64,000 nt of DNA from Rhizobiaceae bacterium (GCA_965198665.1 CBDAPT010000008.1:378809-442808), one strand, 5' to 3'; counted from the first letter of the stretch, positions 15,237 to 35,404 are shown. The notes: generated by a model not told the origin, from the letters alone. Made by a program: numbers and translations.

Positions 15237-15261
15237 AAGCGGGACCGGAAGGCAAATCCAG

Positions 15262-16826: not shown

Positions 16827-17868
16827 AAGGAGATGGCATGAATGGGGTGTGAGCGGTCATGCATCCCGACTCGGATAGAGTGCTGGGAGAGGCGGATAGG
16901 CTGCAGGCTGGATGTCATCTTAGGGCATTGCGACCCTGTAAAGGAGATTACCCGCCGCCTGTATCTGAACGACCAGCGTGAGGCCCGGTTCGGTCCGGTG
17001 ACCTCGTATAGGAGTTTGGCGTGGCCGTTCACACCCTTGTCAGGGTTCCGCCGCTCACCAACGGGAGAAGTTTAGCCATGTCCTTTATCGGTGTCGATCT
17101 TCACACGACGTCTTTCACGGTCTGCCGGCTTGAAGCTGACGGCAGCGAGATATTTGAAACCTACCAGCTGGCAGCGGCCGATCTGGAACGGTTCTGCCTG
17201 AGCCTTGATGCGGACGACGAGATTGCCGTGGAGGCGACGGGCAATTCGGCCTGGTTTCGTGACGAGGTGGTCGCTTGCGTCGGCCGTGTTGTCGTGGTCA
17301 ACCCGAGGCAGTTCGGCGTGATCCGCAAGTCGGTGAAGAAGACGGACAGGAACGATGCCCGGGCACTGGCCTTCTTCCTGTCGAAGGACATGCTGCCCGA
17401 GACGCGTGTGAAGACGGTTGCCGAGAGCGAGTTGGCGTCACTCACCCACACGCGCGATCTTCTGGTCAAGCAGCGCACCCGGCTCATCAACAAGATCCAT
17501 GCGCTGCACACGCGCCACGGCGTCAAGCTGAAGAAGGAAAGCCTGGGCTCGAAGCGGCGGCTCAATGCTCTGGAGGTCGGCCGGTTCTCGACACTGGAAC
17601 AGGTCGAGTTGAAGGCCCTGCGCGACCAGGCGCTGAGGCTTATGGCGACGATTGGCGAACTGGACGGTGCGATCGAAGAGGCCGCCCGGGAACTGGATGG
17701 CTACGACGGCCTCGTCTCAATCAAGGGCATCGGTCCGCGCTCGGCGGCCGTGCTCCTGTCGGGGATCGGCAACGTCGATGACTTCGAGGACGCCGACAAG
17801 CTGGCTGCCTATGTGGGCATCGTCCCGCGCGTCAGCCAGTCGAACGAAACCGACAACCGGGGGCGGAT
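16827..17868 (+). mobile_element. IS110-group element, copy B, 3'-truncated by IS21
   Basis: Appears identical to copies A and C from AAGGAGATGG... up to ...CAACCGGGGGCGGAT, where the IS21 terminal TGTCAATG... begins. Confidence 0.85.
17078..17868 (+). pseudogene. Truncated IS110 transposase (first ~263 codons)
   Basis: Same translation as copies A and C up to ...ETDNRGRI. After that the ORF reads into IS21 sequence. Confidence 0.85.
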
Positions 17869-17935
17869 TGTCAATGTTCAATTAAAACTGACCCTGTATT
17901 TCCATTTAAAACTGACCCACCGTTTTTGCATGCAA

Positions 17936-17984
17936 GCCCCCGGACGATCAGCTCTCCAATTGCAAGATCGTCCGGGGGCTTTTT
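17936..17984 (+). terminator. Strong hairpin plus T-tract inside the IS21 end
   Basis: 14-bp perfect stem GCCCCCGGACGATC / GATCGTCCGGGGGC with a 16-nt loop, followed by TTTTT (17980-17984). Confidence 0.55.
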
Positions 17985-17988
17985 CTGA

Positions 17989-18723
17989 TCAGGATTGAGT
18001 TTTTTGTTTTTTGCTTTGAGCAAACCGGTATGATGCATTCCCGGTTTCTATAATGGTGCAATGATGGGTAATTCGGTCCAGCAGTGCGGTTGTCATCTTT
18101 GCATCTGCGAAGACCTGCGTCCATTCCCCGAACTCCAGGTTGGTTGTAATGATGACGCTTGTCTTCTCGTACAGTTTGCTGATCAGATGGAACAGTAGCG
18201 CTCCGCCGGACTTTGGGAACGGAATATAGCCGAGTTCATCAATAATGACGCAATCCAGTGCGCATAATTGCCGTACGATCCTTGCGGTATTTCCCTCTGC
18301 CTGTTCACTGATCAGCGCATTGATCAGGTCGACAGCATTGAAGAACCGAATTCTCTTGCCGTGATTAACAAGCGTTGTTCCAAGAGCAATGGCAATGTGG
18401 GATTTTCCAGTTCCCGTTCCACCAACCAGAATCAGATTATGTGCATCGGCAATAAACTGTCCGGAACACAAGGGTTCAATCTGTGTTCGGGTTACAGCCG
18501 CCGCATCATAATCGAAGGTGGCAAAGTCCTTGTGATGAGGGAAGTTTGCACTGCGCATTTGATACCGGACCGAACGCACCCTTCGTTCCACGGTCTCTGC
18601 CTCTATCAACTGCTTTATCGCCGTGGCCAGGTTTGGCGGCTGACGTGCACTTAGCAAGTCCTGTGCGCAAGAGGCCATTCCATGCAATCTCAACCCTGCC
18701 AGCTGTTCAATGAGGCCGTTCAT
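17989..18723 (-). CDS. istB: IS21 helper ATPase IstB
   Basis: 244 aa with Walker [12 protein letters not shown] and Walker B VIIDELGY. Overlaps the istA stop. Confidence 0.9.
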
Positions 18724-20219
18724 GCCGTCACCTCATACAGAGCTTCATAACGCTTGCAGTCGGCTTGCGGGACAGTTGAGATCAGAGGATAATTGCCGGT
18801 TTCGCTCAATGGCGTAATTTCCGGTTCTTGCAATTGATTAATCAGATTGATGATGGCAGGAAGACGCAAGGTATTTTGCTTTACAGCCAGCTTACAGGCC
18901 TGCTCGATCACCTCTGTTCCATGCTTGTGTGCCAGCAGCAGAAGATCGACAAAATACCGGTCCCCTCCCTTGTCCTGCATGTAGTGATCCCGGATCGTCA
19001 TCATAACATTTGGCAATTGCCAATCCACGAAAGGGGCGCCATTTCTTAAGGCACCGGGTTTGCGATCCAGCAATGGCACATAGTGCCAGGGCTCAAAGTA
19101 ACTGATATTGCGGGTAAAACGACGTTTGTGCCCGGCAATTACTTCATGATCCGCAACAAGAACTATTCGCCCGGCATAGGCTCGCAGCGAGACTTGTTGC
19201 CCGGCAAACTGACAAGGCACGCTGTAACGATTGTTATCATACTGAACCAGACAGGTGGAACGCACCCGCACACTCTTTTCGATGTACCCGTCAAAGGGTT
19301 GGCCGAGAGGGCGAAGCGCGGCAACCTCTTCTGCAAAAACCGCATCAATTGTGCGATCCTGCATCCCGGGATGCGCACGTTCGCCAAGTTCTTGACAACG
19401 CCGCTCCAGATGTTCATTCAAGCTATCAAGGTCATCAAAGGAAAGCTTGGGCGTAAACACCTCTGCTCGTATGAACCCGACCTGGTTCTCAACCTGGCCC
19501 TTCTCCCAGCCAGATGCCGGCGTACAGGCGACCGGCTCCATAACGTAATGGTTCATACAGGCAAGGAAACGTGCATGGAACATTCGTTCCTTCGAACGCG
19601 ATACATAGGTGACCATAGTCTTGGGATTGTCGATGATGACACGGCGGGGAACTCCCCCGTAAAAGGCCAACGCACGCACAAAAGCATCAAGTACCATCTC
19701 CTGCACTTCGCTGGGATAGGCGTATACAAACGGCTTGCGGCTGTGGCAAAGCCGGAAGTGGGCAATCTTCACTTTCTGGGGTACTCCGCCCAGAACAACG
19801 TGTTCCTCACTCCAGTCAAACTGAACCGCATCACCTGCCGCAAACTGCAGGGGAACAAATGCTCCTCTGGACCCCGAACTCGAATGCTTCAACTCGCGGA
19901 TAAGTCGCTGGGTCGTTGAATAAGACCCTTTATAGCCTTCCCCAACCAGTTCCTCGTAAAGCTTCTTGCCTGTGCGACGCTCCCGGCGCGGCAGCTTCAG
20001 ATCATGCTCCCAGCGTGACCGAAGCTTGTCTGCATGCTTCCCAAGCAATTTATGCAAGGGTGCAGGAGTGTGGCGCTGATAACGAGGCTCCCCATCATCC
20101 TTCAAATACTTCCTGATCGTATTGCGCGAAACTCCCGTCTCACGACTTACCTGTCGAATGCTCTTTTCACCGCGCAATATCCAGCAACGGACCTTCAAAA
20201 CCGTTTCCATTTGTAACAC
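18720..20219 (-). CDS. istA: IS21 transposase IstA
   Basis: 499 aa with an N-terminal HTH ([20 protein letters not shown]) and a DDE region (QFDWSE...IIDNPKT...GWEKGQVEN). Confidence 0.9.
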
Positions 20220-20596: not shown

Positions 20597-21217
20597 TCAG
20601 CTTAAGGCATCACTTGTTTTGAAGTCGACACCTGCATCACGCATCTGTGCCATCGCCGCATCAAGCGATCCATCCAGATCAATGCCACGGCACCCATCGG
20701 TTATCACGGTGGCTGCAAAACCCTGTTTCACCGCGTCAAGCGCTGAGTAACAGACACAGAAATCGGTTGCCAAACCTACCAGATAGACTTCGCTTGTACC
20801 TCGCTCCCGCAGGTAACCGGCCAGACCTGTTTCAGTTTTCTTGTCATTTTCAAAGAACGCCGAATAGCTGTCGATTGCCGCACGGAAACCTTTTCGGATA
20901 ATCATATCAGCCCGGTTTATTTCCAGATCCGGATGAAATTCCGAGCCTTTACTTCCAATCACGCAGTGGGTGGGCCACAGGACCTGGGGTCCATAGGGCA
21001 TATCAATCAAAGAAAACGGTTCCGGCCCTTCATGATTGGCCGCGAAGGATGAATGGTCGCCGGGATGCCAATCCTGTGTCAGCACCCTCACCTGAAACCT
21101 CTCCTGCAAAGCGTTGCTGATCGGTACCACCGCATCGCCGTCATCGACGGCAAGCGCACCGCCCGGACAGAAATCGTTCTGGATATCAATCATCAGAAGT
21201 GCTGCATTGTCTGTCAT
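20597..21217 (-). CDS. pncA: Nicotinamidase/pyrazinamidase (isochorismatase family)
   Basis: MTDNAALLMIDIQNDFCPGGALAV...QDWHP..H.SF...ATDFCV. Carries the PncA catalytic Asp/Lys/Cys and metal-site pattern. Confidence 0.8.
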   Translation of the reverse strand: MTDNAALLMIDIQNDFCPGGALAVDDGDAVVPISNALQERFQVRVLTQDWHPGDHSSFAANHEGPEPFSLIDMPYGPQVLWPTHCVIGSKGSEFHPDLEINRADMIIRKGFRAAIDSYSAFFENDKKTETGLAGYLRERGTSEVYLVGLATDFCVCYSALDAVKQGFAATVITDGCRGIDLDGSLDAAMAQMRDAGVDFKTSDALS

Positions 21218-21334
21218 AATCTCTTCCAACCCTCATCAACCGGTCAAACTTCTCGGTCTATTAAAATACACTTTCGGCTGTGGAATCAAACAACCGTTTC
21301 GCAATATCCAATTACGCAGATAGCAGCCTTGTGG

Positions 21335-22156
21335 CTAGCCCACAAACGCGCGCTCAACGACAAAGGTTGCCGGTTTGTTATTTGCTCCCTCCTGCAAACC
21401 AAGCCCCTCAAGAATTGCTTTGGTCTCATTGAGCATTTCCATGGAGCCGCAAATCATGCCGCGATCGGTTTCCGGCGTGATCGGGTCAACACCCAGATCA
21501 CTGAATACCTTGCCGCTTCTCAACAAGTCGGTGATCCGGCCGGTATGGGGATAATCCTCACGGGTAACCGTGCAGTAATGCGTCAGGCGCCCTGGCGCCA
21601 GTTCACCAACCAGGGGATCATTTGCAATCTGCCCGATCAGATCCTGTCCGTATTTCAACTCAGCGACTTCGCGACAGGTATGAGTGAGGATCACCTTTTC
21701 AAATTTCTCGTAAGTTTCCGGGTCGCGTATCAGCGAAGCAAAAGGGGCAATTCCGGTGCCTGTCGAAAACATCCACAGGCGTTTTCCTGGCAACAGGGCA
21801 TCATTGACAAGCGTGCCGGTCGGTTTTTTTCTGATGAGAATCGTATCACCCGGCTTGATGCGCTGAAGATGTTCGGTGAGGGGTCCGCCGGGTATCTTGA
21901 TCGAGAAAAACTCAAGGGTGTCATCCCAGCTCGGGGAGGCAACTGAATAGGCACGGTAAACCGGTTTTTCAGAATTCGGCAGGCCAATCATTACGAACTC
22001 GCCAGACCGGAACCTCAGGCTTGCGGGCCGGGTTGTGCGAAACCGGAAAAGCCTGTCGGTGTAGTGCTGGACTTCGGTAACGGTTTCTCCAAATACGCCC
22101 TGCGGTATATTGAATTCGCCTTGCAAGTGCTCGTCGGGTCCGACAACTCTCATCAC
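21335..22156 (-). CDS. fpr: Ferredoxin-NADP+ reductase (bacterial Fpr type)
   Basis: 273 aa with [35 protein letters not shown] and a C-terminal ...FVVERAFV. Its start overlaps the stop of the ferredoxin gene upstream of it. Confidence 0.85.
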
Positions 22157-22497
22157 AATGCTCCAGATTCCGCTGCCGGTGCTTCAGAAAGCAGTTGCAG
22201 TTTTTCGGGTTTGTCTGCCCAGATTTCACAATCGGCGCAGGCTTCTCCCTGTTCAGTTATGTTTGGCCAGATTTCCGCGTACTTCCGGTTCAGTTCGATA
22301 CAGAAATCAGCCCCGCTGATTGTATCCGGCTTGATTGCATCAACCGGACACTCGGGCTCACACACTGCGCAGTCAATACACTCGTCGGGATGGATTACCA
22401 CCATGTTCCCGCCTTCAAAGAAACAGTCGACAGGGCAAACCTCAACACAGTCCTTGTATTTGCAGTTGATGCAGCCATCGGTAACCAGGAAAGGCAT
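22153..22497 (-). CDS. fdxA: 7Fe (Azotobacter FdI-type) ferredoxin
   Basis: [29 protein letters not shown]...[22 protein letters not shown] set the start at ATG 22497; the 205-aa ORF extension would overlap the enamidase gene. Confidence 0.85.
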
Positions 22498-22884
22498 GCA
22501 TGAAAACCCGCAGGAGTATCTAGGATGGCAGATAAACTGGTGATCAAAAACATTGGCCTGATTCTTTCTGGCAGGATCGAGGAGCCGATTCTCGATGGCA
22601 ACTGCCTGATCGCCATTGACGGCAAAATCCATTCCTGGGGCAATGAAAAAGATTTGGACACGGCGGATGCGAAAACCGTCATTGATGCACAGGGCGTGAC
22701 ACTCGCACCGGGGCTCATAGACAGTCACATTCATCCGGTTGTTGGAGACTACACTCCAAGGCAGCAGCAATTACACTGGATCGATTCTACCCTGCATGGC
22801 GGCGTGACTACGCTGATTTCGGCTGGCGAAGTCCACATGCCGGGGCGTCCAAAAGATGTGGTTGGCCTAAAAGCGATGGCAATA

Positions 22885-23951
22885 GAGCGTGTTCGCATCA
22901 CGTGAATTCACAGCCGACTGCCCTGAAGAAATTCCGGCACTCCATTGGCGTGAACATATGGCAGACCTCTCCGATTGCCTTCCAGACATCATCGAAGGTT
23001 CTGGCGCCTGCCTTCCTCAGATGAGCCTTGAGCTTCGAAAAGGCCATTTCAATGGCATTGAGATCTGGGGAATATTTCGGCAGGAACAAAAACCATGCGC
23101 CGATATCTCGCAAGATCTGCTCGGCTTTTTCGCTCTTGTGAGCGGCTAGGTGGTCAAGGATTACGACATCTCTCTTTTCCAGTTCTGGCGCCAACTGTGT
23201 CTCAACATAAATCTCAAAGATTTCTTTGGTCATGGCCCGGTCAATAACCCAGGGCGCAACCAGTCCATGACTGCGCAGGCCTGCGATAAGTGTCTGCTTC
23301 TTCCAGTGGCCATGAGGGACAAAATCTATGAGGCGCTCTCCTGTTGGGGCCCATCCAGTTTGCTTGGCCATTTTGGTGTTTGTGGACGTCTCATCAATGA
23401 AGACAAGTTTTTCAATCGACCGATTCAAAAACGGAACACGCCTTGTCTTCCAGAGTTCGCGGTCTTTTTTCACGTCGATGCGGTGTTGCTCCTTGGCATA
23501 AATAGTCTTTTTTTATGCGACAACCCGAAACTGCGCACAACATGCCAGACAGGCGAATGATGGACATTGAGGTTGAATTTTTCGTTCAGCTCCGCACAAA
23601 GCTTACGGATTGTAATGTCCTTTTGTTCATCAACCCGTTTTCGAAGCCAGTCTTTATAGGGTGAAAGCTTGCCATGGCCTGTTTTTCCCGGGTTATGTTT
23701 TGGAGCAAGCGAGCCAGTTTCACGTTTCAACTTCACCATATCATTCACAAATTTGACGGAGACTTTGAAATGGGCAGCCGTTCCACGATGAGTGTGGCCT
23801 TCTTCTACATGAGCTACAACACGTTTACGCAATTCAATCGGATGGGGCTTGGGCATTGAAAATCCTTGGCTTCGAACCGAATCAGGTCACCCCAATCAGA
23901 ATCATATTCGCGCACGGAAAGAAACTGAATCTACTCGACACAAACACGCTC
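22885..23951 (-). mobile_element. IS630-family insertion sequence, copy 2 (1067 bp)
   Basis: Same IRs as copy 1. TA at 22883-22884 and 23952-23953. Confidence 0.9.
22898..23856 (-). CDS. IS630-family transposase (-1 frameshift at T-run 23508-23514)
   Basis: ORF translations are identical to copy 1. Confidence 0.8.
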
Positions 23952-24789
23952 TAGCCGCCCAGCGCTGGTACGAAAACTTCAGACCCTCCGGGATGAAAGT
24001 TCACGCCGGCGCACCGGTGATTGAGCACGGCATGGTGGAAGAGGATTTCAAGGAACTCGCGGAATCAGGGGTAAAGTTTCTGGGCGAGGTTGGCCTCGGC
24101 ACCGTAAAAGACGGAAAGACTGCAAGCCAGATGGTTGGTTGGGCCAGGAAATACGGCATTCAGAGTACCATCCACACGGGCGGACCTTCTATCCCCGGTT
24201 CCGGATTGATTGACGCTGATATGGTACTGGAAACAGGAACGGATGTGGTTGGCCATATCAATGGCGGTCATTCCGCGTTACCCGATGACCAGATCATCTG
24301 CCTGTGTGAAAACTGCAAGGCTGCGCTGGAAATAGTTCATAACGGAAACGAGCGTGCGGCACTCCTGACGCTGAACACGGCCCGCGAGCTGGACAAACTG
24401 GATCAGCTTATTTTAGGGACAGACGGACCGGCGGGATCCGGTGTGCAACCGCTGGGTATCATACGGATGATTGCCATGCTTTCCAGCCTCGGCAATGTAG
24501 CCGCCGAAACCGCACTGTGCTTTGGCACCGGCAACACTTCGAGGCGCAGGAACCTTGATACGGGCATGATAGAAAACGGCTATTGTGCTGACTTTGTATT
24601 GATGGACCAGGCACAGCATGCACCGGGAAAAGACATCCTGGAATCCATTCAGCTGGGTAATCTTCCCGGCGTTGGTATGACCGTCATAGATGGTGTCGTG
24701 CGCAGCGAGCGAAGCCGCAATACACCCCCGGCGACCAGACTGCCCTGCGTGGTTTAAGTTAAAACACATATGCCACAGGGACATATGTG

Positions 24790-24816: not shown

Positions 24817-25278
24817 TCAGGTTAATTTTTTCAGGATTTTAAGAAACGTTTTTTGTTCCTGAGCGGTAAGCGGCTGCAGGGTTTTTGCGGTAATCACCTT
24901 ACCGGCTTTTTTCATTTCTTCTATCAACACAGTTCCGGCCTCTGTAAGGGACACCAATAACCGTCGCTTGTCATTGGGATCAGGTCGGGACTTTACCAGC
25001 CCGCGATGAATCAGGCGATCAACCACTCCCTTGATAGTCGCCACATCCATTCCCGCAAGACGTCCGAGATGGTTTTGTGAACACTCCCCATTGTCGGATA
25101 TGCGCACAAGTGCCGAGAATTGAGTAGGCGTGATGTTGTCTATTGTGTTGCTTTGAAAAATAACGCTATGGCGCTGGCTGGCCAATCGAAGCAGAAATCC
25201 TACCTGGTTATCGAGATCATATCTGTCTTCTGCATGACTCATTGTTTGTTCCATATGCCACGTTCGTGCGATTTTCAT
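24817..25278 (-). CDS. MarR-family transcriptional regulator
   Basis: 153 aa with a winged-helix core ...ITPTQFSALVRISDNGECSQNHLGRLAGMDVATIKGVVDRLIHRGLV...DKRRLLVSLTEAG. Confidence 0.8.
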   Translation of the reverse strand: MKIARTWHMEQTMSHAEDRYDLDNQVGFLLRLASQRHSVIFQSNTIDNITPTQFSALVRISDNGECSQNHLGRLAGMDVATIKGVVDRLIHRGLVKSRPDPNDKRRLLVSLTEAGTVLIEEMKKAGKVITAKTLQPLTAQEQKTFLKILKKLT

Positions 25279-25466: not shown

Positions 25467-26045
25467 TCAACGCAATCCGTCGTTGCCCTCTGCCTCTTCA
25501 TGGGTAAGGCCGCCGACCCGTGGAAGCGGGCGCCCGGAATCCGTCACGGCAATTGCAACCATTATTTCATTGGCTCTTGGTGCATCATTTATCCGCACTT
25601 CCATGCCATCAAAATGGGACCGGACATAGGCGGCGTCCTTATGACCCAGAGGAACATCCAGCGGTTGTCCCATGGAGCCCATTTTCTTGGAGGATGGAAC
25701 CAGAGCCGCCCCTTTCTCCACAGCGGCGCGAAGTGGTTTGCCCAATCTGGGATGCAGGATTGCCGCAGCATGTTCGAGCTCTCCGTTTTCGCCGACCATC
25801 GCTGCCTTGCCATAACTTTCAGCTTCCTGTGGACTGATACCAAGTGCGTCGACGCATTTTTGACCCAGCAAGCCACCCAGTTCCTCACCAGCACTCATGA
25901 GTTCTTCCAGGTCTTCCTGATACACACCCGCAAACGGATTTTCGATAACGGCAATTGCCGCCGCGCGCCGTGTCGGTGGCGATATTTGCCGACCGATTTC
26001 AATATGGGTATCTTCGACCACAACCGATATCTTCCGGATTTTCAT
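25467..26045 (-). CDS. Amino-acid-synthesis family protein (DUF1185/PF06684-like), paralogue 2
   Basis: 192 aa. Shares YGKA.VGE.GELEHAA, VPS.KK.G and YVRSHFD..EV.I.DAPR.NE blocks with the upstream paralogue. Confidence 0.6.
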   Translation of the reverse strand: MKIRKISVVVEDTHIEIGRQISPPTRRAAAIAVIENPFAGVYQEDLEELMSAGEELGGLLGQKCVDALGISPQEAESYGKAAMVGENGELEHAAAILHPRLGKPLRAAVEKGAALVPSSKKMGSMGQPLDVPLGHKDAAYVRSHFDGMEVRINDAPRANEIMVAIAVTDSGRPLPRVGGLTHEEAEGNDGLR

Positions 26046-26061
26046 TGTCTCTCTCCTAACC

Positions 26062-26646
26062 CTATTTCAGTCCATCTTCACCGATCACATCCGCAGCCGC
26101 CAGCCCGCCGGCACGATTGTGAATACGGGCACCTGTCGTCATCGCCAAAATCACGATCATTTCGTTCTTTCTGGGGGCATGGTTGATACCAACCTCAATC
26201 GAATCAAAATGCGATCGCACATATGATGCATTGGAATGGGTAACCGGCACGTCAATTCTCACGCCCGGGCCTCCCACTTTTTTTGCGGACGGAACAATTG
26301 CCTTGGAATTGGGAAGCAGTTCCCGCATGGAATAACCGCCAGGGGCATGCCACAGGGCTGCGTGTTCGAGTTCTCCGTCCTCTCCGACAACCGAAGCCTT
26401 GCCATATGCCTCCACGCCTTCGGGCCCGCAGCCGATAGCAGTGATCAGTTGTTCAGCCATTTTCAGTCCCAGCGGCTTCAGATCGTCCATGAAGCCCGCA
26501 ATATCCTCCACATAACTTCCGGCATACGGGTTCGTAATAACAGTTGCGATATAGGCCCGCCTGTACGGTGTCTGCGACACAGGCCCGCCCTCATGATAGA
26601 TCTCATCCACGGAAATGATGGTTTTTCGTACAATTACTTCAGGCAT
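26062..26646 (-). CDS. Amino-acid-synthesis family protein (DUF1185/PF06684-like), paralogue 1
   Basis: 194 aa, clearly paralogous to 25467-26045. Overlaps the stop of the UPF0280-like gene. Confidence 0.6.
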   Translation of the reverse strand: MPEVIVRKTIISVDEIYHEGGPVSQTPYRRAYIATVITNPYAGSYVEDIAGFMDDLKPLGLKMAEQLITAIGCGPEGVEAYGKASVVGEDGELEHAALWHAPGGYSMRELLPNSKAIVPSAKKVGGPGVRIDVPVTHSNASYVRSHFDSIEVGINHAPRKNEMIVILAMTTGARIHNRAGGLAAADVIGEDGLK

Positions 26647-27583
26647 GAACTTGTCCCGCAGGTTCTGAATTAATGTGTGAATTGGTACCTGTATGCCCCG
26701 CGATCAGATCTGATTTGCCCGGTGTGACCACCCGATGCATGCCCTGGAGCACGAGGTGTGCTAAATGTATTATCCCTGATCGCCTCATTTTTTCGGCTAG
26801 CCGGCAACCCTCTGTGAGTGCATCCTGCTTTTCAAAAGCATCCAGACGGGCAACACCGGTTGTTACCAGCATGTCGCCCAGATCACTGTCCGGGTTAAGT
26901 TCCCGGGCAGGTGCTCGTTCTATCTTGCGTGATGACGGCAGATTGACCGCATTGGCAATCAGTGTCGCAGCCGCGTCAGCCAGTGCGGCGTTAGCAGCGA
27001 ACACGGTCACTGCATCGGCAATGCCAAGGGAATGGCTGCGCCCGGCCCAGCCGCTGGTGGCTACGCCACCGACATCATCTTCGGCGCGAATGGTAGCTCT
27101 GGAACAAATCCTGCCAGTTGCGAGGTCGGAACAAATGCCGACTGTGAACGATTGATTTTCACTAAGCCTCACGGATATATCACCGCCATTATTCACAAAT
27201 ATCCGCCGGGCTGAGACCTTCCCGGCAACACATTGCGTCAGATGATCCGCCACAGATCCCGCTACTGCAATCATAGGTGTGACGAAGTGTTTTTCTGAGA
27301 ATACCGATACCGCATCTAGCATTCTGGCAGCCACCGGACTGTCCGGCACCCATTGACGCGTTGTCACCGGGAGGCGCAACACATCCAACTCCCCACAGAG
27401 ATCGGAGAGTATCGGCTCAAATGAAGCAGCCGCTATCCTGAATGCTTTTTGCCGGTCAGGTTCATCGTGTGTATCAACACCCATGAACAGATCAATGGGG
27501 CCATGACGAAGGAACAGGAGATCACCCTTTTCTGATAACGATATTTGCGGAGCATCCTGAAGCATCGTTACTTTAACTCCCAC
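26639..27583 (-). CDS. UPF0280-family protein (possibly ApbE-like fold)
   Basis: 314-aa soluble protein whose start overlaps the stop of the hnr-like gene by 11 nt. The family call is from memory of the conserved hnr-UPF0280-DUF1185 gene neighbourhood. Confidence 0.5.
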   Translation of the reverse strand: MGVKVTMLQDAPQISLSEKGDLLFLRHGPIDLFMGVDTHDEPDRQKAFRIAAASFEPILSDLCGELDVLRLPVTTRQWVPDSPVAARMLDAVSVFSEKHFVTPMIAVAGSVADHLTQCVAGKVSARRIFVNNGGDISVRLSENQSFTVGICSDLATGRICSRATIRAEDDVGGVATSGWAGRSHSLGIADAVTVFAANAALADAAATLIANAVNLPSSRKIERAPARELNPDSDLGDMLVTTGVARLDAFEKQDALTEGCRLAEKMRRSGIIHLAHLVLQGMHRVVTPGKSDLIAGHTGTNSHINSEPAGQVHA

Positions 27584-29066
27584 CCTTCACAGGCCATGGA
27601 TTATCCAAATGGTTGCCGACGATCCGCTGGCCGCTCAATATGTGATCTTGCTGTTTTCCGGCGTTGGATGCGATCGCTTGATCAAGACTGACAACATGAT
27701 CCATTTGACCGCCGAGCGCTTCATAGTTTTCAAGACTCATGGTGAATTCAATCGGTGCAACCAGGGCCGGCGTGGGTACATAGCCAAACGAATTTTCGGG
27801 CATTCTCGAAACATCAGCCATCACTGTAATACCACCGCCCGGCCAACGGTAGGTCGGCGCACCTCCGCAGGTCACGCTGGTGATCGTCTCCTGGGCCGAA
27901 CGGGTGAGTTTTACGGGATTTTCGGTGACGCCTGCTCTCAACGAACCGCCTGCACCGCCCATAAACATCACCGTGGCAAGTGCAGGTTCACAATTCTCGT
28001 CAATCCGTTTGATCGACGGTCCGAGTCTGTCCGGAACACTCTTTTCTACCGGGATCAGTTCTTCGTTGAGTTCAAAATATGCGAATTGCTCACCAGTCGT
28101 GGACACCATCAGCAGGCTTTGACCGGGACTTGCTTTCTGGGGGTTGAATTCACCAAGGATGTCCAGCGGATCCAAAAGGTCGGTACCGCCCCACCCCGTG
28201 CCTGATCCTGCCACCTGGAAATACCGTCCGGGTGTCGAACGCCGCCCCTTAATCCTGATCCCGGTTTCCGGCCATCCGATAACCTTTCCGGCCTGATGTT
28301 CGGACATGACACCGGTAATGTGGTCATCAACCACAACAACCTCATCGACAAGCCCTTTCCATTGGGAAGCAAACATGCCGACCGTTGCCGAGCCGCAACC
28401 CACCCGCATCCGCTGTTCGGTAACACCATTGACGATGGGTGCCTTGTTCGCCTGTACCACCACCTCAGCCCCGTCATCTATAGACAGTTCCACCGGCTCC
28501 CCGTTACACAGGGCAAGGAGGGTCGCGCATGTTACACGGCCTTCTTTTTTGCCGCCGCCGGTCAAATGATGCACACCACCGAGCGATAACATCTGGGAGC
28601 CGTATTCCGCGGTAGTGACATGACCGACCGGTTCGCCCTGCGCACGCACCAGAGAGCGTTCCGGGCCCAGATGTCTGTCGGTATCAATCTTTACCTTGGC
28701 ACCGCAGTAGCTGAATATCCCCTCGGTAACGACGGTTACCGTGTCGATGCCATTTACCTTGCTAGAGACAATGAACGGTGCTGGCTTATAGTCGGGATAG
28801 GTCGTTCCCGCACCAATTGCCGAAATAAAACGGTCTTTTGGGCGGACAAGTTCACCATCCCAGTTTTCATCACCGTCTTGAAACGGCACCAGCGGCGCCA
28901 TTTCGCTGACACGGTTTTCAATGACGGTGAGGGGATCCAGACGGACGAGTTCACCGCCCTCATTGGCATAGCGATCACATGCACCTGATCTGCCATCAGC
29001 GATGTAACACATGACGGGACATGCATCACATCTGATCTTGTCGGTCGGTTTTGCTTTTTCTACCAA
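27573..29066 (-). CDS. 6-hydroxynicotinate-reductase-like protein
   Basis: 497 aa. The N-terminal Cys cluster IRCDACPVMCYIADGRSGACDRYAN matches proteins I remember as annotated 6-hydroxynicotinate reductase. Lies directly downstream of the Mo-hydroxylase genes. Confidence 0.6.
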   Translation of the reverse strand: MVEKAKPTDKIRCDACPVMCYIADGRSGACDRYANEGGELVRLDPLTVIENRVSEMAPLVPFQDGDENWDGELVRPKDRFISAIGAGTTYPDYKPAPFIVSSKVNGIDTVTVVTEGIFSYCGAKVKIDTDRHLGPERSLVRAQGEPVGHVTTAEYGSQMLSLGGVHHLTGGGKKEGRVTCATLLALCNGEPVELSIDDGAEVVVQANKAPIVNGVTEQRMRVGCGSATVGMFASQWKGLVDEVVVVDDHITGVMSEHQAGKVIGWPETGIRIKGRRSTPGRYFQVAGSGTGWGGTDLLDPLDILGEFNPQKASPGQSLLMVSTTGEQFAYFELNEELIPVEKSVPDRLGPSIKRIDENCEPALATVMFMGGAGGSLRAGVTENPVKLTRSAQETITSVTCGGAPTYRWPGGGITVMADVSRMPENSFGYVPTPALVAPIEFTMSLENYEALGGQMDHVVSLDQAIASNAGKQQDHILSGQRIVGNHLDNPWPVKGGS

Positions 29067-29067
29067 T

Positions 29068-31809
29068 TTATTGAATCCCGTTACCGTCTTTCAGTGCCGC
29101 CAGTACCTTGTCCGGGGTGGCTGGCAAATCCGTAATCAAAACCCCTGTCGCATCCCGTATCGCATTGATAATGGCTGGCGCTGTCGGAATGAGCACATGC
29201 TCCCCCAACCCCTTGGCTCCGTATGGGCCCTCCGCATCTTCCACCTCGATGATCAGGTTGTGGAATTCGGGAACATCACCAAAAGTCGGGATCAGATAGT
29301 CGTGCAGGTTCTCGGTTTTGCCGGGTGCATAATTTTCCATCAACGCCATGCCAATGCCCTGTGCAACACCGCCTTCGATTTGGCCTTCCACCAACAGGGG
29401 GTTTATTGCTTTACCCACGTCATGGGCTGTAACGATGCGGTCAAGTTTCACCGTACCAAGTCCCGTATCAACCGTGAGTTCCATCATTTGTGCGCCATAT
29501 CCATACATGGCGTAGGGAATGCCCTGCCCTTTTTCATCCAGGGGCTTGGTTGGCGGATCATAGGTTTCTTCCGACATGAAGACATAACCAAGTTCATTTT
29601 CCGGCAATCTGGTCAGATCAATCGATGTGGTTGTTTTGCCCTCGCCCGCTGTTATCATTCCGGCTTCAAAAATCAGTTCGGCGTCATGACTGACATTTGC
29701 TTTTCGCAAAATCTGTCTGCGCAATGCTTCACCTGAAAGCTTCGCGGCCTTGCCGGTAATATAGGTCTGACGGGACGCCGAGGTTTTGCCGCAGTCGGGG
29801 GTGAGATCAGTATCACCATCAATTATCTCTATGCAGTGAACCGGCACACCCAGGCCGTCAGCGGCTATTTGAGCAATGACTGTGTTGGCTCCCTGCCCTA
29901 TGTCCATTGCACCCTGATGCAACACTACGGTGCCATCCTGTCTGATCCCCATACGTACGGTGGACGGGTTCGGCAGCGAGGTGTTGCCGCAACCGTACCA
30001 GCAACTGCCAAGCCCTACACCCTTCCTCATCCCTGATCCGTTTGCTCGCCGGTTATGGCTGGCGGCTTCCTCGCGCGCTTCGTCCCAAAACGGTTTGAGG
30101 GCGTTCAGGCACTCTTCTATGCCTACGCCTTTTTCAAAGACCTGCCCCGTTACCGTCGGCAGTCCGTTCTTCAGGACGTTTCTCAAGCGAAAATCGAGAC
30201 GATCGATGTCTGCCCTGTCAGCGAGCAGGTCAAACGCTACCTCCTGAGCGATTGCCGATTGCGGCACGCCAAATCCGCGAAATGCGCCTGATGGCGGTGT
30301 GTTGGTATGAACCGCAACACTTCTGGCCCGGTAATTCTCGACAAAGTATGGACCCGACGCGTGAACCGGCACGCGGTTTGCGACCGTTGGGCCCCAGCTG
30401 GCATACGCTCCGGTGTTGAACACCCCTTCAAAGTCGAAGCCGGTAATTTTTCCGTCTTCAGTACAGCCAATTTTCAAGGCTATCTCTGAAGGGTGCCGCT
30501 TGGTTGTCGACTGCATGGATTCTGATCGATCATAGGTGATAAACGCCGGTTTCCCGAGTTTCCATGCGGCGAGCGCGACATAGGGCTGAAACGACAGATC
30601 CAGTTTTGATCCGAACCCGCCGCCACATGCAGATGGCATTACCCGGATATCATCGAGTTGCAGGCCCATGATCTCGGCAAGGCATTCGCGATCCATCTGT
30701 GCAGCCTGCGTGCATCCAAACAACTCGAGCCGGTCCCCGTTGCGGATGCAGTGCCCGGCTTCAAGTTCGATGTACCCATGTTCGACAAACGGCGTGGAGG
30801 TTCTGACTTCCACCTGGTGACTGGATGACGCCAGGCCGTCGCCAACGCAACCCTTTTCGACAAAACCCTCAACGAGAATATTTTCTCTGCGATCATGATG
30901 CAGATCGATCAGGTTTCCACCCATTGCATCTCTGGGAAGCAGGGCATGATCGGTTGGCTGCCAATCAATCGGCAGGCTTTCCACTTTCAAAGCTTTCACG
31001 GTTTCATACGCGCCAACCACTGCCGCTACAGCTTCTCCCCGGTAGATAGCGACTTCCTCCGCAAATACCGGTTGATCCGCAAACGGAGGAATAACGCCAA
31101 AGCAGTTTTTGCCCGGGATATCTGTTGCATCAAGAAACGCTTCAACACCACGCGTTTCTGAAACGAACCTGTCCTTGTCACCAATCGTGAATTTGGCATG
31201 GTGATGCGGACTGCGGACTACCCGGACATAAAGCGCATCTTTCGGGACAATGTCAGCGCCATACATCAAGGTGCCGTCGACTTTTGGCCTGCCATCCAGA
31301 TGTCGCACCGATGTCCCGACCCCACATCCTGCCTGCGGAGTTACCTCGGCAGCAACGAAATTGTTTGCATGCATCACCGCTTCGACAATTTTGCGATAGC
31401 CTGTGCATCGGCACAAAACACCACCCAGGGCATCCTCCACCTCGTGTTTTGAAGGCTCCGGGTTGTGATCGAGCAATGCCTTTGCGGACATTAACATACC
31501 CGGCGTGCATATTCCGCACTGGGCTGCCCCGTAATGCAGAAAGCTCTGTTGCAGTTTTGTCAGGGTACCGTCATCGGAAAGGCTTTCCAGTGTCTCCATT
31601 CTGGATCCGTCGATCTGTCCGGTACTGGTGGGGCAACTGCAGGCGATATCGCCGTCAATGAGAACGCTGCAGGAACCGCAATCACCGGCATTGCAGCCAA
31701 CCTTGGTTGCAGTGAGGTTCATGTCATCACGAAGAAAATCCGACAGCCGTTTTACCGGGTCAATCGTGGCATGATGTTCATCGCCATTCAGGTGAAAATT
31801 GATTTTCAT
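29068..31809 (-). CDS. Molybdopterin hydroxylase (xanthine/nicotinate dehydrogenase family) with an N-terminal fused [2Fe-2S] subunit
   Basis: 913 aa. The N-terminus has GCNAGDCGSCSV and GAAQCGICTPG...CRCTGY (two 2Fe-2S sites), followed by aldehyde-oxidase/xanthine-dehydrogenase MoCo domains (GGGFG, ...GLGE...). Confidence 0.85.
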   Translation of the reverse strand: MKINFHLNGDEHHATIDPVKRLSDFLRDDMNLTATKVGCNAGDCGSCSVLIDGDIACSCPTSTGQIDGSRMETLESLSDDGTLTKLQQSFLHYGAAQCGICTPGMLMSAKALLDHNPEPSKHEVEDALGGVLCRCTGYRKIVEAVMHANNFVAAEVTPQAGCGVGTSVRHLDGRPKVDGTLMYGADIVPKDALYVRVVRSPHHHAKFTIGDKDRFVSETRGVEAFLDATDIPGKNCFGVIPPFADQPVFAEEVAIYRGEAVAAVVGAYETVKALKVESLPIDWQPTDHALLPRDAMGGNLIDLHHDRRENILVEGFVEKGCVGDGLASSSHQVEVRTSTPFVEHGYIELEAGHCIRNGDRLELFGCTQAAQMDRECLAEIMGLQLDDIRVMPSACGGGFGSKLDLSFQPYVALAAWKLGKPAFITYDRSESMQSTTKRHPSEIALKIGCTEDGKITGFDFEGVFNTGAYASWGPTVANRVPVHASGPYFVENYRARSVAVHTNTPPSGAFRGFGVPQSAIAQEVAFDLLADRADIDRLDFRLRNVLKNGLPTVTGQVFEKGVGIEECLNALKPFWDEAREEAASHNRRANGSGMRKGVGLGSCWYGCGNTSLPNPSTVRMGIRQDGTVVLHQGAMDIGQGANTVIAQIAADGLGVPVHCIEIIDGDTDLTPDCGKTSASRQTYITGKAAKLSGEALRRQILRKANVSHDAELIFEAGMITAGEGKTTTSIDLTRLPENELGYVFMSEETYDPPTKPLDEKGQGIPYAMYGYGAQMMELTVDTGLGTVKLDRIVTAHDVGKAINPLLVEGQIEGGVAQGIGMALMENYAPGKTENLHDYLIPTFGDVPEFHNLIIEVEDAEGPYGAKGLGEHVLIPTAPAIINAIRDATGVLITDLPATPDKVLAALKDGNGIQ

Positions 31810-31811
31810 TG

Positions 31812-32654
31812 CTATGGGTTCCCCGCCAATGAGCCCAGCACCCGGATTGCAAGCTCCTTGCTCGCCAGCGTTCGGTAGGCCCCGGTGGAACGTATGTCAT
31901 CAATGGGTGACAGCGAGGCAAAATGTTCATCGGCCACATCCGTCACGAGATCACGCGACAGCGCTTTGCCGACCAGCATAGCCTCCAGAGCCGGCAATCG
32001 TGTTGCGACGGCGGAGCACGAACCGACACTGATTTTTGCATCCTCGATGATGCCGTTTTCTCCGACAGCCAGACGGGCAGCCAACATTGAAATCGAAATC
32101 ACCAGATATTTTCGTGCGCCGAGTTTCAGAAACGCAGACCTGCCCAGGGATTGTTCAGCGGGAATCATAAGGCCGACAACCATTTCATTCGGCTTCAGAT
32201 TTGTCTGGCGATTGCCCAGGATAAACTCTTCAAGCGGGAGTTCACGTTCTCCATCGACAGAGGCAATCTTGACGATTGCGCCGAGTGTGAGCAGAGGCGG
32301 AACGCCATCAGCGGCCGGAGATGCATTGCAGATGTTACCGACAACGGTCGCCCGATTTTGGATCTGTACTGAACCGACTTCTTTTGCCGACAGCTTCAGG
32401 CCTTCAAAAGCTGGCGGAAAATCATGTGCGATTACTTCTGACCAGGTGACAAGCGCCCCAATATGCCAGTTGCCCTGGGTGTCCTTCTCGATATTGCGCA
32501 GGGAAGATATTCCGGAAATATCCAGCACATTGAAATCGACTTCTTTCTCCCCGAGAGATGGATAAAAATCCGTGCCACCAGCAAGAATTTTCCAATCTTG
32601 CGAGTTCAACAAGGTAACCGCGCGGTGCAATTTTTCGGGTTTGCTAAACTGCAT
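31812..32654 (-). CDS. FAD-binding subunit of the Mo-hydroxylase (CoxM/XdhB-like)
   Basis: MQFSKPEKLHRAVTLL...ILAGGTDFYP... is FAD_binding_5-type. GAGGTGG RBS lies 6 nt before ATG 32654. 2-nt gap to the next gene. Confidence 0.8.
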   Translation of the reverse strand: MQFSKPEKLHRAVTLLNSQDWKILAGGTDFYPSLGEKEVDFNVLDISGISSLRNIEKDTQGNWHIGALVTWSEVIAHDFPPAFEGLKLSAKEVGSVQIQNRATVVGNICNASPAADGVPPLLTLGAIVKIASVDGERELPLEEFILGNRQTNLKPNEMVVGLMIPAEQSLGRSAFLKLGARKYLVISISMLAARLAVGENGIIEDAKISVGSCSAVATRLPALEAMLVGKALSRDLVTDVADEHFASLSPIDDIRSTGAYRTLASKELAIRVLGSLAGNP

Positions 32655-32834
32655 TGCACGCCACCTCAAGCCACGCGGAACTGAAATGCCATATCGAAAT
32701 TTTCAAGCTCCTCAACCATCTAATCTGGAACCTGTTCCTTAACCTCCTGTCACCAGCAGGTTATTGTTAGCATACAAATAAAAATTTTGTTTGTAAACAT
32801 CGTTAGGGGAGCTCATTTCAAGACGCATGGAGCA

Positions 32835-33476
32835 TCACACCTGGGCCTGTTGCCTGCCGGCCTGTACGGCGGATACCCACCTGCCGGGGGACACTCCAAA
32901 AGCGCGGGCAAAGTGACGGGTCATGTGGCTCTGGTCGGCAAACCCGGTAGCAGCGGCGGTTTCACTTAGCGGGGTACCGGATGACATCATTTCACGGGCA
33001 ATTTCCAGGCGCCGCATGATCAGAAAACGGTGCGGGCTTGTTCCGAACGCATCCCGAAACCTGCGGGACAGGGAATATCGGTCGAGCCCGGAAACTTTCT
33101 CCAGGTCGTCGAGTGTTACATTCTGCCGACAATTGTCCACCAGAAAATCCCGTGCCCTCAGGAGTTGTCGCTTCGGCAATGCTCTGCGTCGCCGGGCCGT
33201 CTGCCTGGCGTGCCTCTCCAGCGCAGCCGTGATTTCAGCAATGCTGCCTGCCGCCTGAACCGCTTCGAGACCCGGTTCGAATGGCTGTGTTGCAGCGAGC
33301 AACGCAGCGTGTAGTGTCGCATTCGCAGAATTCACACCGAAGGAAGCAGCGATTGTCGGGCTCGCCCTGCATGCGGACACCAAGGTTGTCGACAAAATTA
33401 CCAAGGGTGCAAAACTGCATCCATGAAGATGACACATCAGGCTGCATATTCTGATTAGAAAAGGGCGTGAAACCAC
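32835..33476 (-). CDS. AraC-family transcriptional regulator (C-terminal HTH domain clear; N-terminal domain possibly frameshifted)
   Basis: The C-terminus ...LDDLEKVSGLDRYSLSRRFRDAFGTSPHRFLIMRRLEIAREMM...ETAAATGFADQSHMTRHFARAFGVSPGRW is a canonical AraC dual HTH. A second ORF (33235-33684) in another frame overlaps its 5' part. Confidence 0.6.
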   Translation of the reverse strand: MVSRPFLIRICSLMCHLHGCSFAPLVILSTTLVSACRASPTIAASFGVNSANATLHAALLAATQPFEPGLEAVQAAGSIAEITAALERHARQTARRRRALPKRQLLRARDFLVDNCRQNVTLDDLEKVSGLDRYSLSRRFRDAFGTSPHRFLIMRRLEIAREMMSSGTPLSETAAATGFADQSHMTRHFARAFGVSPGRWVSAVQAGRQQAQV

Positions 33477-33952: not shown

Positions 33953-35391
33953 TTATAACCCGCACATAGGTGGGCGCCGGTGCTGCCAGGGCAATGCTAT
34001 CTCCAACTGCCGGGCGAGTTGCAGAAGGGTGAGGTCGTCCCCGACCCGGCCGGCAAAATGGATGCCGATCGGCAGTCTGTTTTCGCTCTCATATAGTGGG
34101 ACAGACATGGCGGGCTGGCTGGTAACGTTGAAAATTTCCGGATAAGGGGCAAATTTCCATGCTTCGTCCATCCAGGTTTCAATGCTGCGATTAGCCGCTT
34201 GTGTAAAGACACCGGTTTCAGGCGGGGGACCGGTTACCACCGGCGACATAATGACATCAATACCGTTCATCGAAACGGTCATTTGTCTTTGCAGCCGTGT
34301 CAGTTGCGCCTGTGCGCGGGCGACTTCAACGGAATTTGTTGCCCGCGCCTGTTCCATGGCTCATTGTATGACCGGACCCAATTCTCCATCTCGGGGTGGC
34401 CGGCCCAAGGTTTCGGCATGTTCTTCTACCAGCACCGTCAATTCATTGGCCCAGAATACCGAGGCAGCATCACACGCGTCACAATTCGGCGGCCATTCCC
34501 AGGGGATAACAGTATGTCCCAGTTCTTGCAGCAGCCGGGCGGTAGCTTCAAGACAAGAGGCCATGTCTGCGTCCGGCTTGATGCCGGTGGGCGAATGGGG
34601 GACCATTGCAATTGAGAGACCGGCAGGCGCTTCATCAAGCCGGTCAAGAAACCCGGCTCTGTTTTCTTGATAGGCGCGCGGTGAGCCGGTTTCCGGACCG
34701 GTGGTAGCGTCAAGCAATGCGGCGGAATCCCTGACCGTCCAACTGACAGCATGATCGCAATTAAGGCCATTGACGAGCGGCCCCAGATGAGACCCGGTGG
34801 CGACCAGCCCGCTGGTTGGCTTGAACCCGAACACTCCGCAGCAGGCTGCGGGAACCCTAATTGAACCGCCAGAATCCGTCGCATGTGCCAGGGGCACAAT
34901 ACCTGCGGCCACCGCACAAGCGGCACCACCACTGGATCCGCCGGGCGTGAGGCTCAAGTCCCAGGGATTGTTGGCCGGGCCATATAATTCAGGTTCGCAG
35001 CCATAATCGGTTGCAAATTCCGGGGTATTGGTACGACCAAATACAACCAGCCCCGCTTCATGCCACCGTTGCGCCAGCAGACTGCTCTCCGCCGACGCCG
35101 GTGCGTCGTCAAAAAACGGCAGGCGTGTTTTAGCGGCATGCCCTTTACCTGGACATTGATATCCTTCGCGGGAAAAGGAACACCTGCCAAAGGCATTTCA
35201 GGTGACTCCGATGCGGCTGCTTTGTAAGCCAGTTCATCATAGCGACTTACGATTGCATTGAGTTGGGGATTGTGGATGTCTATCTCACGAAAGACAGCAT
35301 CCAAAAGTTCAGACGGTTTGATCTTTTTGTGGCGAACCAGTTTCGCCATAGCCACCGCGTCGAGTTTTCGAAATTCGCTTCTGCTCAGCAT
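33953..35391 (-). pseudogene. Amidase-signature (GatA-like) amidase, inactivated by a homopolymer frameshift and an in-frame TGA
   Basis: Three consecutive ORF pieces. The AS motif [32 protein letters not shown] is present. Reading T6 (A6 at 35111-35116 on +) as T7 restores ...RFFDDAPASAESSLLAQRWHEAGLVVFGRTNTPEF.... TGA at 34361-34363 is in frame between ...GPVIQ and AMEQARA.... Confidence 0.75.
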
Positions 35392-35404
35392 GTCGGCCCG
35401 CAAT

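Follow-up and report, generated by a model that had tools for sequence, protein, structure and literature searches.

UPF0280 and paired DUF1185 genes are linked to the 6-hydroxynicotinate reductase gene of nicotinate-degradation clusters

In a 64,000-nucleotide (nt) stretch of DNA from a Rhizobiaceae bacterium (GCA_965198665.1, CBDAPT010000008.1:378809-442808; "the window" denotes this whole stretch), a gene for a probable homologue of 6-hydroxynicotinate reductase (hnr; protein, Hnr) is followed by a UPF0280 gene and two DUF1185 genes, here called a-type and b-type. Analyses of these genes and of their relatives elsewhere showed that they are genomically tied to hnr, and we regard it as highly probable that hnr, UPF0280, DUF1185a, and DUF1185b form a functional module. 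This module would act in the ferredoxin-dependent reduction of 6-hydroxynicotinate to 6-oxo-1,4,5,6-tetrahydronicotinate, in a nicotinate pathway of the E. barkeri/Azorhizobium type. As a complete explanation we tentatively propose that UPF0280 matures or partners Hnr and that the two DUF1185 proteins form a hetero-hexameric helper of the same step.

Linkage was assessed in two collections. A scan of species-representative genomes yielded 80 hnr loci (identity, 66-80%) in Alphaproteobacteria, Gammaproteobacteria (Granulosicoccaceae, Marinobacter), and Acidobacteriota; adjacency was counted in the evaluable loci, 77 for hnr/UPF0280 and 68 for DUF1185, with L051 added after inspection. In 72 of the 77 genome loci UPF0280 was the next gene 3' of hnr, on the same strand, and in 26/26 hnr-bearing plasmids from an independent set of 72,556 plasmids it lay directly downstream of hnr, which bears out the co-occurrence that the original prediction, made from the sequence of the window, had proposed to check. 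Past UPF0280, the a-type gene followed by the b-type gene was found in 43 of the 68 loci and no adjacent DUF1185 gene in 8; where a single one is present, it is mostly the b-type (14 loci, as against 3 with the a-type only), and Bradyrhizobium-type loci retain the b-type only. The junctions themselves recur. An 8-nt overlap of UPF0280 and DUF1185a was seen in 39/45 loci and a 4-nt overlap of DUF1185a and DUF1185b in 34/42, while the RefSeq gene calls of Sagittula stellata give overlaps of 4, 8, and 4 nt within the module. As they are conserved across phyla, these junctions are far beyond chance.

The sole plasmid with UPF0280 but without hnr is an IS1071-cut remnant (Hydrogenophaga sp. BPS33 pBPS33-1, NZ_CP044550.1). 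Its UPF0280 gene lies directly past an IS1071 transposase gene, with MarR, Rieske oxygenase, and PDR/VanB reductase genes near. The plasmid has four UPF0280 matches and visibly duplicated neighboring genes, and the locus seems to be what a composite transposon has left of an hnr-type cluster, with hnr lost.

The main argument for what the genes do comes from their exchangeable surroundings. The hnr-UPF0280-DUF1185 block occurs with hydroxylases of the xanthine dehydrogenase (XDH) type or of the NicA/NicB type, and with enamidase or hydantoinase A/B, and it stays intact while the surrounding hydroxylase, ring-opening amidase, and transporter are swapped. UPF0280 and DUF1185 are attached to hnr in every swapped context, arguing that they serve Hnr itself. 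One variant cluster, found in L019, L021, L026, L028, and L089 (Roseibium, Salipiger, Actibacterium, Sagittula), has a gene resembling ferredoxin-NADP reductase (FNR) just 5' of hnr, a VanA-type Rieske oxygenase gene just 3' of the DUF1185 pair, and hydantoinase A/B instead of enamidase. These differences point to another mode of ring opening, possibly ATP-dependent, and perhaps to another substrate range.

In the window, the three genes are real, intact open reading frames (ORFs) at the 3' end of a tightly packed six-gene operon (lengths in amino acids, aa; FAD, flavin adenine dinucleotide; AF2, AlphaFold2):

31812-32669, minus strand: FAD-binding subunit of a xanthine-dehydrogenase-type (nicotinate) hydroxylase, first gene of the operon (Pfam FAD_binding_5, CO_deh_flav_C)
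29068-31809, minus strand: fused [2Fe-2S] and molybdopterin subunit of the hydroxylase (Pfam Fer2, Fer2_2, Ald_Xan_dh_C, MoCoBD_1, MoCoBD_2)
27573-29066, minus strand: hnr-like gene, probable 6-hydroxynicotinate reductase homologue, 497 aa (from homologues named by NCBI)
26639-27565, minus strand: UPF0280/COG2122 protein of the ApbE superfamily, hnr-linked clade, 308 aa from the ATG at 27565 (NF003322, PF27030, AF2 model and Foldseek)
26639-27583, minus strand: longest UPF0280 ORF, with a GTG start at 27583 (ORF call)
26062-26646, minus strand: a-type DUF1185 (PF06684), 194 aa (Pfam, 225.9 bits)
25467-26045, minus strand: b-type DUF1185 (PF06684), 192 aa (Pfam, 244.7 bits)

The Fe-S/Mo subunit gene starts 2 nt past the stop of the FAD-subunit gene and stops 1 nt before the start of hnr. 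The TGA of UPF0280 ends at 26639 and the ATG of DUF1185a lies at 26646, an overlap of 8 nt, and the DUF1185a stop ends at 26062, 16 nt ahead of the DUF1185b ATG at 26045, in a spacer with an AGGAGA Shine-Dalgarno sequence. These two distances had been predicted exactly, and the coordinates and families predicted for the three ORFs (NF003322 and PF06684 matches) also hold. The predicted 11-nt overlap of hnr and UPF0280 depends on the start codon. The hnr TAA occupies 27575-27573, so that the overlap is obtained with the GTG at 27583 and is lost with the ATG at 27565, at which the identical database protein P0121 (308 aa) starts; the latter leaves a 7-nt spacer past the TAA and has GGGAG located 11 nt upstream. 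Either start codon gives a tight junction. A promoter-like site precedes the first gene of the operon on the minus strand (32797-32769), as a consensus match that counts as weak evidence.

For the UPF0280 ORF (26639-27583), the NCBIfam model NF003322 (PRK04334, the UPF0280 group) scores 320.5 bits, with a cutoff of 290, and PF27030 (AbpE_bact) is precomputed for P0121 and for all 120 homologues among the matches listed. Among solved proteins it is a homologue of DVU1097 (PDB 2O34), matched by phmmer (E = 3e-7), by profile (E = 1.9e-11), and by Foldseek (E = 2e-10); with a profile of 58 UPF0280 homologues it was the only PDB match. The AF2 model of UPF0280 (predicted local distance difference test [pLDDT] score, 91.2) has a predicted ApbE-like two-domain fold. 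In a Foldseek search with it, ranks 3-40 past 2O34 (38 matches) were all ApbE/Ftp/FmnB flavin transferases, with a probability of 1.0 for the 22 with E <= 0.001 and of 0.77-1.0 for the rest, and every match at E <= 0.001 was either 2O34 or one of these transferases. The original suggestion that UPF0280 is ApbE-like is supported by this predicted fold; the protein does not belong to Pfam ApbE. The likeness to ApbE/Ftp/FmnB (PF02424) lies in the overall fold (TM 0.36-0.50), at 11-13% sequence identity.

Comparison of the active sites used ApbE sequences drawn from the PDB alignment output. In a weak alignment, the UPF0280 segments VAGSVAD, NNGGDI, ATSG, RSHSLG, and AVTV..ADAAAT pair with ApbE motifs, and the series A-x-G..A-D, GGD, TSG, VTV..AD..T is common to both. 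The conserved residues of the ApbE catalytic center are Ser241, His257, and Asp285 in V. cholerae numbering (PMC12052999, a 2025 ApbE review). Within the same weak alignment, Ser171 and Asp197 of UPF0280 align with Ser241 and Asp285, and Ser171, Asp197, and Thr201 are invariant in 58/58 homologues, while the segment that bears the ApbE histidine is shortened. Unlike ApbE/Ftp/FmnB, UPF0280 shows by eye no obvious signal or lipobox and no hydrophobic N-terminal stretch, and thus appears to be cytoplasmic. A motif scan of the loci, 1.5 Mb of sequence in total, found no ApbE gene.

The candidate client, Hnr, has ten conserved cysteines in homologue alignments, including an N-terminal CxxCxxxCx9C motif. 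More than 8000 homologues are named 6-hydroxynicotinate reductase by NCBI, and a proteobacterial (Bradyrhizobiaceae) homologue is reported as 42% identical to E. barkeri Hnr (PMC3511419); both lend indirect support to homology with the characterized E. barkeri enzyme. Our searches found no Pfam, NCBIfam, or PDB relative of Hnr and no recognizable flavin-binding domain in it. Annotation of Hnr from structure was given up: its AF2 model has a pLDDT of 57.9, and Foldseek gave no match with E <= 0.001. Residues 80-99 (about 28770-28829, minus strand) hold an invariant F-x-[ST]-A-x-GAGTTYPDYKPAPFI without confident structure in this model. The block might be a candidate modification loop, loosely like the small-residue/Thr core of ApbE acceptor sites (SGAT).

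We propose that UPF0280 is a dedicated Hnr partner, most likely a maturation factor. An ApbE-type site, made up of the invariant NNGGD, Ser171 of ATSG, and Asp197 and Thr201 of ADAAAT, would install or hold a cofactor of Hnr. The leading candidate for this cofactor would be a covalently bound flavin, which E. barkeri Hnr reportedly carries (work of Alhapel et al. in 2006). That UPF0280 itself installs flavin on Hnr is possible, though we lean toward doubting it.

Several observations weigh against flavin installation or against a strict need for the module. UPF0280 had no Pfam match at E <= 0.01 in a local Pfam copy and so falls outside ApbE PF02424; its profile alignment with ApbE is statistically weak (hhalign probability, 9%), and in that alignment the position of ApbE His257 holds His in 46/58 and Phe in 10/58 UPF0280 homologues. 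The acceptor motif D-x-x-[S/T]-G-A-[S/T], strict or core, occurs in 0/46 Hnr sequences, in no cluster protein, and in no window ORF of at least 80 aa. The Hnr model is too poor to locate a cofactor site. The studied members of COG2122, which corresponds to UPF0280, serve homocysteine synthesis and sulfide assimilation, not flavinylation, and Rauch and Perona, as cited in PMC5764234, judged that COG2122 homology stops short of the part of ApbE that binds flavin. Against a strict need for the module speak the 8/68 loci without adjacent DUF1185 and the 5/77 without adjacent UPF0280. Finally, the 150 best representatives included no protein that fuses UPF0280 to Hnr or to DUF1185; the longer ones among them carry unrelated extensions. 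The 654-aa protein P0002 has an internal duplication, which from our reading of its sequence appears to be an assembly or gene-call artifact.

For the DUF1185 pair, the scores against PF06684 (AA_synth, formerly DUF1185) compare with a cutoff of 27 bits, and both matches span positions 1-175 of the 175-position model. The predicted paralogy stands (44% identity over 190 aa, E = 8e-52), with two of the three sequence blocks quoted for it needing slight correction: the first reads YGKA..VGE.GELEHAA, with two wildcards past YGKA, and "DAPR" of the last block is HAPR in the first paralogue. The b-type protein matches SPO0826 (PDB 2QTP) at E = 4.7e-101 with about 85% identity, by our count on the printed alignment, and is likely the orthologue of this crystallized protein. 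The PDB search also matched 3BYQ (BB2672) at E = 5.6e-36, with which the a-type protein has a one-residue gap and a WH..GG signature in common. Both families have crystal structures, 2O34 for UPF0280 and 2QTP and 3BYQ for DUF1185.

The 2QTP and 3BYQ proteins are hexamers (trimers of dimers) whose fold resembles that of Bacillus chorismate mutase, and their dimer interface encloses a cavity of roughly 1000 cubic angstroms lined by conserved His, Glu, and Arg; in BB2672 it includes the salt bridges Glu90-Arg176 and Glu92-Arg172 and a His cluster (PMC2954203). Both a-type and b-type sequences have E89, E91, H92, H98, H144, R172, and R176 without exception. With all interface residues invariant in both paralogues, a:b heterodimers are plausible. 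We propose that the two proteins are produced in a fixed ratio with UPF0280 and probably assemble as trimers of a:b dimers into a hetero-hexamer, which would help the reductase step by analogy with the "assisting" role of TgnF, a DUF1185 protein. The idea that DUF1185 is an unconcatenated relative of cyanuric acid hydrolase/barbiturase, or a relative of RidA, was rejected, as 2QTP and 3BYQ were the only PDB entries that the DUF1185 profile matched.

TgnF also points to another role for the pair, which may be either a helper of the reductase step or a handler of the labile ring-opened product. In the latter case DUF1185 would act downstream of Hnr, for instance as a "helper" for an enamine/imine or aldehyde/lactol, comparable to the assistance that TgnF gives to succinate-semialdehyde dehydrogenase; such a role would fit with whatever UPF0280 does, and we consider it possible but on the whole doubtful. 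Most DUF1185 members do lie outside hnr clusters (389 plasmid records, as against 26 with hnr), and they recur in heterocycle-catabolic operons beside hydrolases and aldehyde dehydrogenases in Rhizobium, Acinetobacter, and Rhodococcus. Their commonest other context, on Rhizobium and Acinetobacter plasmids, comprises DUF1185, alpha/beta hydrolase, flavin reductase, LLM oxygenase, and aldehyde dehydrogenase genes, and looks from the gene products like a trigonelline-type cluster; a Rhodococcus plasmid has the order FAH-DUF1185-VOC-ALDH. The chorismate-mutase-like fold adds to this, since the same fold class also has RidA-type enamine/imine deaminases.

Other evidence speaks against a downstream role. 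The pair is tied to UPF0280 and hnr rather than to enamidase, and its persistence with hnr where hydantoinase-type enzymes replace enamidase argues against an enamidase-specific function. No aldehyde dehydrogenase is conserved near hnr, and in the PDB the DUF1185 profile retrieves neither a RidA nor a cyclic-amide-hydrolase relative. TgnF-type genes stand at the head of the trigonelline operon, adjoining an alpha/beta hydrolase gene and with an aldehyde dehydrogenase gene near, whereas the window has two tandem paralogues coupled to UPF0280, and its operon contains no alpha/beta hydrolase, flavin reductase, LLM oxygenase, or aldehyde dehydrogenase gene. TgnF and HcdD are discussed in PMC7913881: TgnF is cited there as reported to stimulate an aldehyde dehydrogenase, and the stimulatory effect of HcdD was not reproduced by the authors.

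As to UPF0280, we rank maturation or partnering of Hnr first, a role as stoichiometric subunit second, and sulfur trafficking third. In the second case, UPF0280 and the DUF1185 proteins would be lasting subunits of a heteromeric Hnr holoenzyme in aerobes instead of a transient maturase, for example with UPF0280 as a nucleotide- or flavin-binding subunit and DUF1185 as scaffold. The stop/start overlaps conserved across phyla would fit equimolar cotranslation; Hnr itself has no recognizable flavin-binding domain, ApbE-fold proteins bind FAD (PMC12052999), and DUF1185 proteins are stable hexamers (PMC2954203). We nevertheless judge this arrangement unlikely. DUF1185 is dispensable in 8/68 loci and reduced to a single paralogue in 17/68, and the absence of gene fusions noted above counts against it as well. 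The E. barkeri enzyme, moreover, is said to have been purified as a single type of polypeptide.

Sulfur trafficking is suggested by the family to which UPF0280 belongs. Genetic evidence places COG2122 in homocysteine synthesis and sulfide assimilation, together with DUF39 enzymes: in D. vulgaris, homocysteine synthesis depends on it, and its cofitness with DUF39 is r = 0.98 (PMC5764234). MA1715 aids sulfide assimilation and is described as a sulfur-trafficking protein, with a proposed persulfide role (PMC5764234; PMC12068725). The original view that these families lack any experimentally assigned function therefore needs amending, given this evidence, the stimulation reported for TgnF as cited in PMC7913881, and the crystal structures named above. 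The UPF0280 protein of the window is of the same family as the DVU1097-like clade (hhalign probability, 99.6%; NF0033xx group, PF27030). In three of six distinct contexts of this sister clade (L083/84, L087, and L088, metagenomic contigs), the gene order is HcyBio (DUF39)-NIL/4Fe-4S ferredoxin-UPF0280, which confirms the published association, while the DVU1097-like genes L082, L085, and L086 have unrelated neighbors. Both clades, the homocysteine one with DVU1097 (2O34), DvMF_0044, and MA1715, thus have their gene directly past one for a ferredoxin-dependent, Cys-rich enzyme. The partner is Hnr in the window and the 80 related loci and DUF39 with NIL/ferredoxin in the homocysteine clade.

By the same token, UPF0280 could traffic sulfur as persulfide, or build a special Fe-S/sulfur site in the Cys-rich Hnr, as has been supposed for DUF39/COG1900 enzymes. 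The shared family, the mirrored gene order, the genetic requirement for COG2122 with DUF39, the description of MA1715, and the ten conserved cysteines and ferredoxin-type electrons of Hnr all favor this; we nonetheless hold it to be improbable. The Cys of the C-x-S-S motif, present in 100% of 55 DVU1097-like sequences, is replaced by an invariant Ala169 in the hnr-linked clade, and the sister-clade G-H-S-L-S reads G-R-S-H-S. Among the hnr-linked proteins no alignment column is invariantly Cys, 84% being the highest share, and it is because of the loss of the Cys that sulfur trafficking ranks third. The hnr-linked proteins are also longer (about 300 aa, as against about 250 aa) and occur mostly in lineages that we take, from their taxa, to be aerobic, unlike the homocysteine clade. 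No homology between Hnr and DUF39 was detectable.

We had considered Hnr as a distant relative of DUF39/HcyBio, which would have united both UPF0280 contexts. This idea was dropped as unsupported: hhalign probabilities were 0.1-0.3%, and 46 Hnr sequences gave no HcyBio match at E <= 10. An invariant Hnr block, DTVTVVTEGIFSYCG (residues 108-122, about 28701-28745, minus strand), briefly resembles the DUF39/HcyBio motif VDVVTTGTFSPMCSS (L083:5263-6417); the likeness is without statistical support as homology, and both enzyme genes have a UPF0280 gene after them.

A broader version of the maturation proposal would take UPF0280/COG2122 as a general class of dedicated maturases for ferredoxin-dependent, Cys-rich reductases (DUF39/COG1900 and Hnr) that are not known to have other assembly factors. 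The hnr-linked clade, having lost the sulfur-carrying Cys, would then flavinylate Hnr in a noncanonical, ApbE-like manner, on or with an a3b3 DUF1185 scaffold; a target may be, for example, the invariant, apparently unstructured GAGTTYPDYKPAPF loop of Hnr (residues 85-98). We see this as a speculative proposal with a small chance of being correct. Smallest of all is the chance that the genes merely hitch-hike beside hnr without a functional link, as the IS-rich, partly decayed region with its split ena gene and amidase fragments could suggest, given the near-perfect two-way association in two independent collections and the overlapping junctions conserved across three phyla.

The surroundings of the operon hold further genes with a bearing on nicotinate metabolism, and insertion sequence (IS) elements:

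24817-25278, minus strand: MarR-family regulator (Pfam MarR)
22534-24757, plus strand: enamidase-like (ena) gene, split into 22534-22896 and 23948-24757 (tblastn with a full-length ena homologue)
about 22883-23953: IS630-family element within ena, with DDE_3 transposase ORFs at 22898-23856, minus strand (domain match)
22153-22497, minus strand: ferredoxin (Fer4, DUF3470)
21335-22156, minus strand: FNR-like protein (FAD_binding_6; 67% identity to the FNR-like gene adjoining hnr in L026)
20597-21229, minus strand: isochorismatase/nicotinamidase-like protein (Isochorismatase domain)

The ena gene is convergent with the operon. Residues 8-128 of the homologue map by tblastn to 22534-22896 and residues 123-390 to 23948-24751, and the intervening element is bounded by 28-nt imperfect inverted repeats (22883-22910 and 23926-23953). 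Owing to this interruption, the step after Hnr is probably knocked out at this locus, with hnr, UPF0280, and both DUF1185 genes intact. The beginning of the ORF at 23849, where IS-end sequence is fused to the ena fragment, recurs at 7856-7960 as a stretch of 35 residues with 97% identity, which suggests that this IS630-family element has a second copy or a second end there. One search with a guessed IS-end pattern gave no match, which has no bearing on the module.

The ferredoxin start is the Met at 22497, as read from the translation; the longest ORF (to 22770) is spurious upstream of it and overlaps the N-terminal ena fragment on the opposite strand. FNR-like genes flank hnr in at least eight loci, in L081, and in Sagittula. 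It is plausible that the ferredoxin and FNR-like genes supply electrons from NAD(P)H through ferredoxin to Hnr and that the isochorismatase gene is a nicotinamide feeder. The MarR-family gene probably has its own promoter: a consensus scan, itself weak evidence, gave a promoter-like site at 25408-25379 and a terminator-like hairpin at 24789-24765, the strongest such match, with weaker ones scattered across the region. A MarR homologue lies within +/-10 kb of about half of the hnr loci.

The hnr locus sits in an IS-rich, partly decayed region with IS110, IS21, and IS630 elements and amidase fragments. IS110-family transposase genes (17021-17998 and 36918-37952) and an IS21 istA/istB pair (17989-20219) lie on either side of the nicotinate region, so that this region may be a mobile or decaying island. 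Three consecutive ORFs at 33953-35454 (minus strand) match positions 1-78, 124-286, and 342-445 of the Pfam Amidase profile and look like a frameshifted amidase pseudogene; they adjoin an AraC-type regulator gene (32835-33476) and a LysR-type gene (35953-36798). A full-length gene for SelO, a protein adenylyltransferase, lies just outside the IS-bounded region (15109-16752, plus strand) and is unrelated to the module.

The window resembles published nicotinate-degradation clusters in its hydroxylase, its hnr (66-80% identical to the homologues in such genomes), its enamidase-like gene, and its MarR gene, and in having the same unknown genes placed past hnr. It differs in carrying both DUF1185 paralogues, where Bradyrhizobium-type loci have the b-type only, in the disruption of ena by the IS630-family element, and in the several IS elements that flank the region; the branched-chain-type ABC transporter of the published cluster was seen in related loci and not in the window. 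A 2012 paper had already noted conserved unknown proteins in the nicotinate cluster, and the window is thus another member of a known cluster. New, to our knowledge and as far as the searched literature goes, are the recognition of one unknown gene as COG2122, the clade-specific loss of its Cys, and the quantified two-way linkage with conserved overlaps. The papers of that literature make no mention of UPF0280. The original suggestion that an undescribed enzymatic function may lie in these genes was a fair one.

Hnr, an ene-reductase that acts on a pyridone ring and depends on ferredoxin, has neither a Pfam family nor a solved relative. Three proteins are genomically locked to it, from families of which COG2122 is genetically essential for an anaerobic homocysteine route and DUF1185 is credited with "assisting" an aldehyde dehydrogenase. 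An understanding of the module would account for the production or working of Hnr in aerobes, could bring to light a second form of ApbE-type protein modification, and would give a handle on the function of COG2122 in methanogens and sulfate reducers. It would also correct the misleading label "amino acid synthesis family protein" on hundreds of plasmid-borne and presumably many more chromosomal genes. If UPF0280 were indeed a general maturase, this would bring a new flavinylation motif and transferase pair and the first mechanistic role for DUF1185. Its wide occurrence in marine Roseobacter-group and rhizobial genomes and plasmids makes the module relevant to vitamin B3 turnover.

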